Shown here: positions 3,218 through 29,828 of the stretch, one piece after another | Layout of the letters: every line of letters begins with the position of its first letter | Position numbering within the stretch: position 1 is the stretch's first letter | IMG/VR virus record: IMGVR_UViG_3300048854_000272 | Span: 1 to 32,482 of that record | Strand: one strand, 5' to 3' | Length of the DNA stretch: 32,482 nucleotides | Origin: a virus | Lineage: Duplodnaviria; Caudoviricetes | Program-made: the position numbers and the translations under genes | The notes under the pieces: model-generated | The model's input: only the letters and a program-made list of their open reading frames with translations | Told to the model about the DNA's origin: nothing | Databases searched by the model: none

Positions 3218-3459
3218 CCTGCGATCGCGTTGCCATGCCCGGCGGTGGCGTGGCGATCGTCTGCTCGAACCGGAGGCGGCAGCAGTGCCAATGCGGCCGG
3301 CCAGCTACGCTTGCGTGCGATTGGAAGGTGTCGAGCAGGCGCAGCGGTACGTGCGACGCGCCTATATGCACGCGCTGCACGACGTCTCCTGCACCTGACA
3401 AGGATCTCTGCCCGGATCACGCCGAGGCGTTCAAGAAATGGATTGCGGATCGATCATGA
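3214..3459 (+). CDS. Small Cys-rich putative zinc-binding protein
   Basis: ATG 3214 overlaps the upstream TGA; CxC, LACD, TCDAPICxxC, DLCPDH pattern. Confidence 0.75.
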   Translation: MTCDRVAMPGGGVAIVCSNRRRQQCQCGRPATLACDWKVSSRRSGTCDAPICTRCTTSPAPDKDLCPDHAEAFKKWIADRS

Positions 3460-3487
3460 GATCGACCGTGCACATATCGAAAGTCTG

Positions 3488-3901
3488 ATGCCGAACAAGC
3501 TGTTGCCGAACAGGTTTCTCATTCATCGCCTGCCGGCATGCCTAGAAGCGATCCGGCGGCACTACTGCGACTTCGGCTGCTCGCCCAGCATCACCGAGCT
3601 GGCAGCGCGCATCGGCGTCACCAGATCGTCCCTGCATCCGCTACTGCGTAAGCTGGCGACGGCGCAGCTGATAGGCTGGACGCCAGGAACGCGGCGCTCG
3701 ATCACGCTGCCACGCCCGTTGTCGGCGATGGCGACGAGTGACCTTTTGTGGGAACTGCAGGCGCGCGGTCACGTCACGAGTATTCACCCGCCGGGCACCG
3801 TCGCGGCGATATCCGCGTGGCCGGAAGCGAGCGTCGTCGATCTCGCCCAACTACCAAAACATGAACGCGATTTGCTCGATCGTCTCTGCGACATACCGTG
3901 A
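3488..3901 (+). CDS. LexA-type winged-helix DNA-binding protein lacking the S24 peptidase domain
   Basis: GCSPSITELAARIGV...LLRKLATAQLIGWTPGTRRSITL matches the LexA DNA-binding domain pattern (PS.REL...L..L...G.I......RSI); start taken at ATG 3488 inside ORF 3230..3901. Confidence 0.75.
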   Translation: MPNKLLPNRFLIHRLPACLEAIRRHYCDFGCSPSITELAARIGVTRSSLHPLLRKLATAQLIGWTPGTRRSITLPRPLSAMATSDLLWELQARGHVTSIHPPGTVAAISAWPEASVVDLAQLPKHERDLLDRLCDIP

Positions 3902-27853: not shown

Positions 27854-28372
27854 ATGATCCCACTCGCCTGGGGGCGCAAAGTCGCGCCCGCCTTCCGTGA
27901 CCGCGTGCGCGCTATCGCCGGCGAGCTCGGCTGCTCGGCCTCCGACCTCATGGCCTGCATGGCCTGGGAGACCGGCAGGAGCTTCTCGCCTTCGGTGCGC
28001 AACAGCGCCGGCAGCGGCGCGATCGGTCTGATCCAGTTCATGCCGCAGACGGCCGGCCAGATGCACACCACGACGGACAAGCTCGCCGCGATGAGCGCGG
28101 TCGCGCAACTGGATTATGTCGATCTCTATTTCCGCCCTTGGCGTGGGCGGCTTCACAATCTCGGCGATCTCTACTGCGCGATTCTCTGGCCGGCCGGCGT
28201 CGGCAAGGCGGATACCGCAATCCTGTTCGAGAAGGGCGGAGATCACCCGAAGCTCTACCTGCAAAACGCAGGGCTCGATCTCAACCACGACAACGACATC
28301 ACGCGCGGCGAGGTGACAGCGAAGGTGCGTGCGCTGCTCGCCGAGGGACTGCTGCCGGCGAACGCGGCCTAG
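27854..28372 (+). CDS. Endolysin, lytic transglycosylase/lysozyme-like, with C-terminal EF-hand-like loop
   Basis: Catalytic MAWETG, SGAIGLIQFMP motif, QLDYV; DLNHDNDITRGE loop; RBS GGAGG before ATG 27854. Confidence 0.9.
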   Translation: MIPLAWGRKVAPAFRDRVRAIAGELGCSASDLMACMAWETGRSFSPSVRNSAGSGAIGLIQFMPQTAGQMHTTTDKLAAMSAVAQLDYVDLYFRPWRGRLHNLGDLYCAILWPAGVGKADTAILFEKGGDHPKLYLQNAGLDLNHDNDITRGEVTAKVRALLAEGLLPANAA

Positions 28373-28608
28373 GCCGGCGGGTTGATGTCGGCCCAGTGGG
28401 TTACGCCGCTAATGGGAAGGCATTCGTAAAGCGCCCTCCAATGTCCGTCCGGCTCAGGGTCGTCGAGCTGATGGAATATATCGCCGCCCCGCTCCCAGGT
28501 GCCGACATCCGGACCGTCAGCCCACAAAAGCATATTGCGGCCATCCTTCCGATCATCGGGAATTGCATCGATCGGCTGCCAGTCGATGCCTTTGACGTGG
28601 ATCATCAT
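28369..28608 (-). CDS. Small antisense protein, DUF551-like
   Basis: RBS GGAGA before ATG 28608; WQPIDAIP..RKDG..MLLW and VTHWADINPP termini; stop overlaps the lysin stop (CTAG). Confidence 0.75.
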   Translation of the reverse strand: MMIHVKGIDWQPIDAIPDDRKDGRNMLLWADGPDVGTWERGGDIFHQLDDPEPDGHWRALYECLPISGVTHWADINPPA

Positions 28609-28625
28609 ATTCTCCGTTCGCTGCA

Positions 28626-28750
28626 CGCCGGCGGTAGGGATTCGAGCCCACGGCAGGCTGGGTATCGGCTCTCCGGCGCCACCCAACCCAACTAGCCGGT
28701 CACGCCCTTACTCGTTCGGGTTCAGCCTTAGACCACTCAGCAACACCGAC
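28626..28750 (-). ncRNA. tRNA-like RNA/pseudo-tRNA (Ser/Leu-type D arm, no canonical anticodon arm)
   Basis: On the - strand: acceptor GTCGGTG/CGCCGGC, D arm GCT-GAGTGGTCTAA-GGC, T arm GTGGG-CTCGAAT-CCCTAC, long extra stem GGGTTGGGT/ACCCAGCCT; no encoded CCA. Confidence 0.7.
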
Positions 28751-28784
28751 GCGCAGCACCGCTTTCTACCATCCGGAGCATCCC

Positions 28785-29087
28785 ATGAACAGCATTCCGC
28801 ACGTCCGTGTGGTGGTGGGCTTTTGCCTGCTCGCCGCCGTTGCGTACCTTGGCTTCAGCATCTTCATCGTCGGCTGGTCCGGTGACGCCGCGCTACGCGG
28901 CGACGTGATCGGCACATGGAAGTCCTTCGCGGTCGCCGCCTTCGCCTTCTGGGTCGGATCGAGCAGCGGGGGCAAAGCCAAGGATGCCCCGCCCCCTCCT
29001 AAAGATGCCCGTGAGGCTGCCGACGCCGTCGCAGGCGCCGCCACCGATCGGGCCAACTCAATCACTGGCGACACTACCGGCGCCTGA
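28785..29087 (+). CDS. Holin-like membrane protein
   Basis: Two hydrophobic segments ending in AFWVGSSSGGK, the F.FGSS.GS-type motif of small phage holin-like proteins; RBS GGAG. Confidence 0.75.
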   Translation: MNSIPHVRVVVGFCLLAAVAYLGFSIFIVGWSGDAALRGDVIGTWKSFAVAAFAFWVGSSSGGKAKDAPPPPKDAREAADAVAGAATDRANSITGDTTGA

Positions 29088-29571: not shown

Positions 29572-29828
29572 TGAAGACCGCCAATGTGATCAGCGCCGGC
29601 CCGGAAGAACATCCGGAGTCCGGCGCTGATCTCATGCGCATCCTCGTAAACCGGCCGTGGGCTGTCGCTGGAGAGCGATGGCCCGCGACCGAACTATGGG
29701 CTCAGCGGGATATGCCGGAGCCCGTAACCGGCGAGGCGATCGAGTGGGATCACCGCCACGTCTGGCTGCGCGGCGTCCGCTACGAAAAGCCCGAGGACGA
29801 TCGAAACCCGTCCGCATCGCTGCACTGA
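29571..29828 (+). CDS. Hypothetical protein (85 aa)
   Basis: TGATG coupling with the upstream gene; 3' part of ORF 29127..29828. Confidence 0.55.
   Translation: MKTANVISAGPEEHPESGADLMRILVNRPWAVAGERWPATELWAQRDMPEPVTGEAIEWDHRHVWLRGVRYEKPEDDRNPSASLH

Follow-up and report, generated by a model that had tools for sequence, protein, structure and literature searches.

Between the lysis genes of a provirus, on the strand opposite to them, lies a short stretch of DNA whose RNA would have the frame of a transfer RNA and no anticodon arm, followed closely by a small antisense gene. This raises the question of whether the RNA is a part of that gene, a regulator of lysis, the remains of a tRNA or a small RNA gene in its own right. 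The window, by which we mean the whole 32,482-nucleotide stretch of DNA analyzed here, is a 32.5-kb provirus record that is 47% complete, and a family search of its 36 proteins found lambda-type head and tail genes. We infer a sphingomonad host, as Sphingobium and Rhizorhabdus are the sole organism-named homologues among the 120 matches listed for the putative holin. The unit had been placed between endolysin and holin in the original prediction. The location stands, and the upstream gene (27854-28372, plus strand) is a lytic-transglycosylase-type (SLT) endolysin, with a weak SLT match; it shares 53-55% identity with annotated lytic transglycosylases of phages. The small hydrophobic protein on the other side (28785-29087, plus strand) matched nothing in family searches and is holin-like by context: a gene abuts its homologues upstream in 18 of 28 loci, and 14 of those 18 genes carry a lysin domain, so that endolysin and holin are normally adjacent. 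A LexA-like box at 28790 was rejected, since the window contains 21 such matches with one mismatch and this one overlaps the holin start. Further along, a strong GC-rich hairpin without a U tail (29583-29638) lies 3' of a 143-aa gene, and the stretch around it is conserved in close relatives (89-91% over 245-305 nt; L002, L003).

The whole tRNA-like unit spans 138 nt of the minus strand (28757-28620), starting with GCTGC and ending with GCAGC. All of the parts previously listed for it (a 7-bp acceptor, a D arm, a CCC-10nt-GGG hairpin, an oversized extra stem, the loop CTCGAAT and no CCA) are present in the sequence, as are the seven extra flank pairs (28757-28751 with 28626-28620), which bring the closing stem to 14 pairs. 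The 5' arm of this stem (28757-28744) consists of the paired leader (28757-28751) and the acceptor 5' strand (28750-28744), and its 3' arm (28633-28620; pair probabilities 0.96-1.0) consists of the acceptor 3' strand (28633-28627), the discriminator G (28626) and the paired trailer. No CCA is encoded, and positions 73-79 are paired with the leader. Eleven of the 14 closing pairs are Watson-Crick and three are G-U on the minus strand, the latter becoming A-C mismatches on the plus strand; the fold energy is -63.7 kcal/mol for the minus strand versus -47.2 kcal/mol for the plus strand. The acceptor itself has five Watson-Crick and two G-U pairs, with C3-G70. Seven pairs arise by chance at 0.14% of random position pairs.

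Inside the closing stem lies a Ser/Tyr-type D arm (28741-28725) with A14, G15, G18, G19 and A21 present. The anticodon arm is replaced by a weak hairpin (28720-28705) of 3 bp and a 10-nt loop, with neither a 7-nt loop nor U33, and an oversized variable arm (28697-28652) is predicted to fold into about 14 bp in three segments, with CCGGAGA in the apical loop. The middle of the unit is 73 nt long. The T arm (28651-28634), with its loop CTCGAAT, carries two lesions, namely C54 (28646) and, on the 3' side of its stem, one additional base (28636). This extra unpaired T-stem base goes beyond the original prediction, and so does the U, rather than G, at position 9.

Several scores argue that the frame is real. 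The D-arm motif (0 mismatches) occurs once in the window against 0.02 occurrences expected from shuffles, and the T-arm motif (1 mismatch) once against 0.04, both motifs having been picked post hoc; the two lie on the same strand and in order. A covariance model built from 14 other RNAs (R2) scored the unit at 41.9 bits (E 1.5e-12), with 9.6 bits for the next best hit in the window. Because the 14 sequences were gathered with window-informed patterns, this score confirms the frame and not kinship. Folding against shuffles gave a modest z of -1.95 for the whole unit, 0.25 for the 125-nt core and -0.74 for the middle, and the D-stem probability from 2D folding (0.01, versus 0.00-0.22 in the 14 other RNAs) is uninformative. 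Where a pseudo or undetermined call had been expected, neither ARAGORN nor the scan against Rfam made a call on the unit. Calls from relaxed ARAGORN runs, among them one scoring 70.8 without an identified tag, were spurious and were set aside.

The RNAs behind the model form a wider class of enlarged frames. A pattern scan of viral contigs gave 16 matches, three of which were tandem-tRNA artefacts and were dropped; the other 13 are frames of class II, their middles ranging from 54 to 84 nt, and one frame from GTDB makes up the set of 14. These 14 keep 96.7% of their frame pairs and have changes on both sides at 7/7 acceptor pairs, and the frame of the wider class is therefore under selection, although some of its members may be intron-bearing tRNAs. 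The 73-nt middle of the window unit is inside the 54-84 nt range of the class. Its acceptor extension amounts to seven pairs versus 0-2 in the 14 members, all of which have G9, U54 and an unbroken T stem, whereas the window unit has U9, C54 and a T-stem bulge. Eight loci (L015, L017, L018, L019, L021, L022, L025 and L026) carry, near position 1500, enlarged tRNA frames of the serine type that differ in their hairpin inserts and form a coherent family; Rfam labels them as low-scoring tRNA only, and several have a second, weaker tRNA-like unit some 250-450 nt downstream. In a Paenirhodobacter MAG (L042, 1486-1623), a tRNA-Ser(TGA) carries a second D arm and a partial anticodon arm on its 5' side.

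Compared with tRNAs from three host-type genomes, the D arm and the T-arm entry of the window unit match those of Ser and Tyr tRNAs. Its acceptor is unlike that of the 15 class II host-type tRNAs examined (agreement at 8-10 of the first 15 bases), yet it stays paired. This difference in the acceptor argues that the unit is not a recent copy of a host-type class II tRNA. Neither U9 nor C54 occurs in any of the 15.

When R2 was run on 20 related phage records, it returned three ordinary tRNA-Met, a truncated tRNA-Ser adjacent to an integrase-like gene and a single sibling of the window unit. (The 5' half of a tRNA-Ser(TGA) at L049, 4848-4920, adjoins an integrase-like gene and is probably an attachment-site remnant.) The sibling is 112 nt long, lies on the minus strand of the complete record G866 (L137, 1606-1495) and scores 48.8 bits. 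It has the same D arm as the window unit, and GCCGTGGG, the T-arm entry of the window unit, here leads into an intact T arm. Its closing stem comprises ten Watson-Crick pairs, from GCTGC to GCAGC, and its long variable arm shares the loop CCGGA(A/G)A with the window unit. None of the three departures of the window copy (U9, C54 and the T-stem bulge) is found in it. There is no U33 loop: a marginal Pro call by ARAGORN has C before the nominal anticodon, and the Rfam tRNA score of 28.1 bits is below the cut-off. No gene lies directly downstream of the sibling, which faces a run of small convergent genes outside the lysis region. The absence of an anticodon arm and the existence of this sealed-end sibling bear out the proposal that the unit is a tRNA frame that does not decode.

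By eye, TTGACG and TAGGGG stand upstream of the sibling at a spacing that would put +1 on its first stem base. A possible extended -10 in the window, TG-N-TAGAAA (28763-28771, minus strand), lies at a nearly matching distance to the sibling's TAGGGG; the RNA start would be at about 28757, and there is no good -35. Consensus promoter scans found no promoter at the window locus and none at the sibling locus. A GCWGC-bracketed pattern matched only the window (locus L001) and L137 among 139 loci. The two middles (73 and 45 nt) align no better than shuffles (score 14 versus a shuffle mean of 16.9), so that, apart from the tRNA frame, the only signs of common ancestry are the layout, one loop motif and the ends GCTGC and GCAGC. 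These shared features were all spotted post hoc, and the family consists of two sequences.

We then considered the small antisense gene (28369-28608, minus strand), which encodes 79 aa and belongs to a family with the pattern WQPI..DRKDGR..THWADI, for which a profile search found 138 homologue clusters. Its homologues begin MIH, and it therefore probably starts at its second ATG (28605) and encodes 78 aa. A Shine-Dalgarno-like GGAG (28612-28615, minus strand) is found 4 nt past the closing stem. Thus the predicted ribosome-binding site is upheld, the predicted length of 79 aa probably needs this small revision, and the proposed likeness to DUF551 is a lead only: a Pfam search of the protein gave no match, the gathering cut-off of DUF551 (PF04448) not being reached, one of 30 family proteins matches DUF551 at E 0.031, below cut-off, and DUF551 is carried by 11-21% of the members in the nearest Atlas clusters. 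The stop codons of the endolysin and the antisense gene overlap inside a 12-bp perfect palindrome (28361-28378). Elsewhere, WQPI-type small genes lie antisense after a lysis cassette at L046 (3329-3571), L047 (about 3335-3560), L051 (about 3647-3850) and L056 (2945-3175); the one at L047 sits behind a gene resembling an SOS-associated peptidase. A close sub-family (L079 and L081-L084, about 1501-1704) has an AT-rich promoter-like stretch upstream in several genomes, and the gene ahead of it is one that we take to be nucleotidyltransferase-like.

Sequencing run X2 contains a close relative in which the gene and the RNA are separated. A 691-nt contig (depth 7.9) covers the endolysin, the small gene and the holin start and skips 133 nt (28623-28755; joint 28622/28756), which is precisely the tRNA-like part. 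Near-direct repeats, alike at 6 of 7 positions, lie at 28759-28753 and 28626-28620, the first across the stem base and the second within the 3' arm of the stem, and the joint is ambiguous by two letters either side only. The small gene of this relative retains its GGAG and has nine listed differences from that of the window, six of them synonymous and three non-synonymous, the latter matching protein P0002. A second X2 contig joins 28368 to 28784 with other sequence between, and a 151-nt contig (depth 2.1) is identical in sequence to the window. A single contig, from a single run, shows the skip, which might be an artefact of library preparation. Hairpins flanked by short repeats can lose sequence when a polymerase slips from one repeat to the other, both in vivo and with some PCR enzymes, according to the part of PMC4134008 available to us; on this ground an artefact is conceivable, and loss is more likely than gain in the X2 relative. 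In four close endolysin relatives the lysis slot is empty or holds unrelated genes, and no intact tRNA occurs at this slot in the relatives examined. The unit is likely a passenger in a variable lysis slot.

The original prediction had described the RNA and the gene as a fused unit. One way to picture this is a structured 5' leader of the small-gene message that stabilizes it or is cut by RNase P or RNase Z for maturation. The unit does lie between the possible -10 and the ribosome-binding site, which is largely unpaired in the predicted fold, and tRNA-like modules are described as RNase P substrates in the available portions of PMC4919913 and PMC4201824. However, the X2 relative without the unit keeps the gene with mostly synonymous changes, and the sibling has no downstream gene, which together speak against a functional fusion. 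Moreover, no tRNA-like leader was found upstream of small-gene homologues at any of 15 other loci (L035; L046, L047, L051 and L056; and 10 matches in 9 of 341 genomes), and a fully paired 5' flank and a damaged T arm make a poor processing signal. We therefore regard the leader as quite improbable.

A second proposal, that the cassette acts in the lysogen as an antisense brake on the expression of endolysin and holin, fares worse. The cassette is indeed convergent with the endolysin, the stops overlap, a terminator was looked for on the minus strand of the antisense cassette and not found, and 4 of 28 holin loci have a small gene of the family in antisense within or just behind the lysis cassette. 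But the tRNA-like part is opposite intergenic sequence only and ends 18 nt before the holin ribosome-binding site, read-through needs no tRNA frame, the relative without the unit retains the antisense gene, and the sibling is not in a lysis region. A brake thus seems scarcely probable at all.

The same contig can be read the other way around, with the relative as an empty site rather than a deletion and the unit as a small mobile tRNA-derived cassette with the target GTGC(A/T)GC. Presence and absence are exact, with near-direct repeats at both ends, and the sibling, at a different place, has the same GCTGC/GCAGC ends. The flanks also look like a short hairpin found in a close relative: in record G004 (L129, 1420-1448), a 9-bp hairpin lies in a late-leader tRNA array, and it shares with the window flanks (28774-28753 and 28626-28620) GGATGGTA, a 7-nt gap and GTGC(A/T)GC. 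The cassette may thus be an inverted piece of such a late tRNA leader. This match was found post hoc in one viral record; the hairpin motif gave seven matches, namely G004 itself and six without a nearby tRNA, the best-looking of which lies opposite a coding-like region. Against mobility, the skip is asymmetric to the stem, as slippage predicts, the joint permits just those two letters either side, the unit is single-copy in each genome, and no transposase is nearby. We consider such a cassette very improbable. As a separate observation, TGACGGCGGTAA occurs three times around a phage tRNA-Met leader (L128, 1309-1320, 1414-1425 and 1877-1888) and once in another phage, after a small-gene cluster (L035, about 1425-1437).

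The null model of the original prediction was pseudogene decay, and in its present form it holds that the unit is a decaying tRNA-Ser pseudogene, or a dead class member, on a captured DNA fragment, inert and being lost. The three departures speak for it, since none of them occurs in the 14 class members or the sibling and U9 and C54 are each found in 0/15 host-type tRNAs; so do the clean loss in a close relative, the want of a close homologue in the collections searched and a middle that folds no better than shuffles. On the other side, 14/14 closing pairs are intact, and the three that are not Watson-Crick are G-U on the minus strand only; the acceptor, unlike those of host-type tRNAs, is still paired; and a sealed-end sibling exists. 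With no relative carrying an intact tRNA at the locus, these points argue that the unit is not simply an ordinary tRNA that decayed in place, while decay stays a live account of this particular copy. Overall, we judge the pseudogene reading somewhat unlikely.

Comparison with known systems placed the unit nearest to two RNAs of phage T5, RNA1 (144 nt) and RNA2 (125 nt), which are annotated in AY543070 as "tRNA-like stable RNA with unknown functions". Like the window unit, they are phage-encoded frames with D and T arms and an enlarged, non-decoding middle. Unlike it, they lie in a tRNA cluster and have acceptor stems of ordinary length and U54, whereas the window unit is solitary and its ends are sealed. 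The T5 RNAs reach only 13-14 bits on R2 and were compared by their GenBank annotation. Measured against this group of non-decoding phage look-alikes, the window copy has the frame and the enlarged middle but lacks an intact T loop and stem. With class II tRNA-Ser/Tyr (RF00005) it shares a nearly identical D arm and T-arm entry, G73 and a long variable arm, and it differs in having no anticodon arm, U33 or CCA, an acceptor start other than GG, U9, C54, the T-stem bulge and the 73-nt middle; as a canonical class II tRNA it thus has the acceptor and D arm, but not the 5-bp anticodon stem with its 7-nt loop, the 5-bp T stem with a TTCRANY loop or a free 3' end.

The YrlA Y RNAs, as far as PMC4201824 is available to us, likewise have a tRNA-like module mimicking D and T arms and are found in bacteria and phages, mostly uncharged. 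In that account, however, the T arm precedes the D arm with an acceptor-like stem between them, and the RNA adjoins a Ro60 gene within 4 kb; in the window unit the D arm comes first, the 36 window proteins yielded no Ro60 family, and no Rfam match was obtained. The tRNA-Other of Bacillus cereus, in the accessible part of PMC3399842, is also non-translating and linked to mobile DNA, and is proposed to be a structural module of a longer RNA. It flanks a chromosomal island and has a demonstrated phenotype, whereas the window unit is carried by a phage, its middle is enlarged and its ends are sealed. Finally, the tRNA-like domain of tmRNA resembles the unit in having an acceptor and a T arm and no anticodon arm. 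An identity with tmRNA was rejected: there is no G3-U70 (the unit has C3-G70), the D stem is paired, no tag frame is found, and the unit is far too short.

Searches for further homologues came back empty in the collections covered. Three element-specific patterns gave 0, 1 (a tandem-tRNA artefact) and 0 matches in viral contigs. A scan of GTDB genomes gave six matches and no homologue: four looked like intron-bearing tRNAs, one was a tRNA-Ser behind a duplicated D arm and one was an enlarged frame (L043). In phage and plasmid records, the window unit as query found no close homologue and the sibling found no homologue, its two best plasmid matches being ordinary tRNA-Ser. In 401 genomes of one family, which we take to be sphingomonads by 16S signature, 12 short matches were at chance level, with two candidates scored per genome, and 18 genomes of one genus held no close homologue. 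The patterns called for gaps of at least 45 nt in one case and at least 56-60 nt in the others; these gap ranges and the D-loop letters would miss the sibling, and the blank searches thus set no limit on the size of the family. Neither Rfam nor the searches of open-licence papers turned up the sealed-end, stand-alone form; the model list of PMC10690425 could include it.

Together, these results lead us to favor, tentatively, the reading that the serine-tRNA-derived, anticodon-less, sealed-end unit is a stand-alone accessory small-RNA gene whose product acts as a nuclease-resistant, uncharged decoy presenting a tRNA elbow, with the window copy a partly worn passenger. Transcription would start at the first stem base, driven by a promoter immediately before it. 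The paired leader and trailer would let the RNA escape trimming by RNase P, CCA addition and charging, and the sealed RNA would resist exonucleases. The exposed elbow of D and T loops and the long arm could then bind or titrate host proteins that handle or cut tRNAs. An elbow decoy is our best guess because only the elbow and the long arm are left exposed. RNase P and other molecular rulers clamp the D/T elbow, as stated in the accessible text of PMC4919913, and the D/T mimic of bacterial Y RNAs is recognized by tRNA-modifying enzymes, according to what is available of PMC4201824. In the window copy, U9, C54 and the bulge may already disable the elbow, and these three lesions, with the loss in the relative, suggest relaxed selection on it; that loss would have come about through deletion by slippage from one to the other of the short repeats at the base of the stem. 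Against the earlier idea of a decoy for anticodon nucleases, the well-known anticodon nucleases read the anticodon loop, and the window RNA has none.

More broadly, it is possible, though we think it unlikely, that temperate phages of sphingomonad-like hosts carry stand-alone, sealed tRNA mimics that begin with GCTGC, serve as elbow-only decoys against tRNA-targeting defenses and travel as a removable cassette that moves between slots. Non-decoding phage tRNA look-alikes of the T5 RNA1/RNA2 type are known; the sealed-end, stand-alone form, as seen in two sequences, appears to be new. Look-alikes of the T5 type are annotated as being of unknown function, and standard tRNA and Rfam scans miss the window unit. 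The sealed acceptor helps to separate the possible jobs of such an RNA: the usual charging and trimming would be impossible, and any effect would have to be exerted through the elbow or the long arm. Two close relatives, one with and one without the unit, also offer a natural comparison. As a relic, the unit would illustrate the loss of such RNAs through slippage at a hairpin; as a decoy, it would represent a class of RNA-only counter-defense genes that annotation has overlooked.
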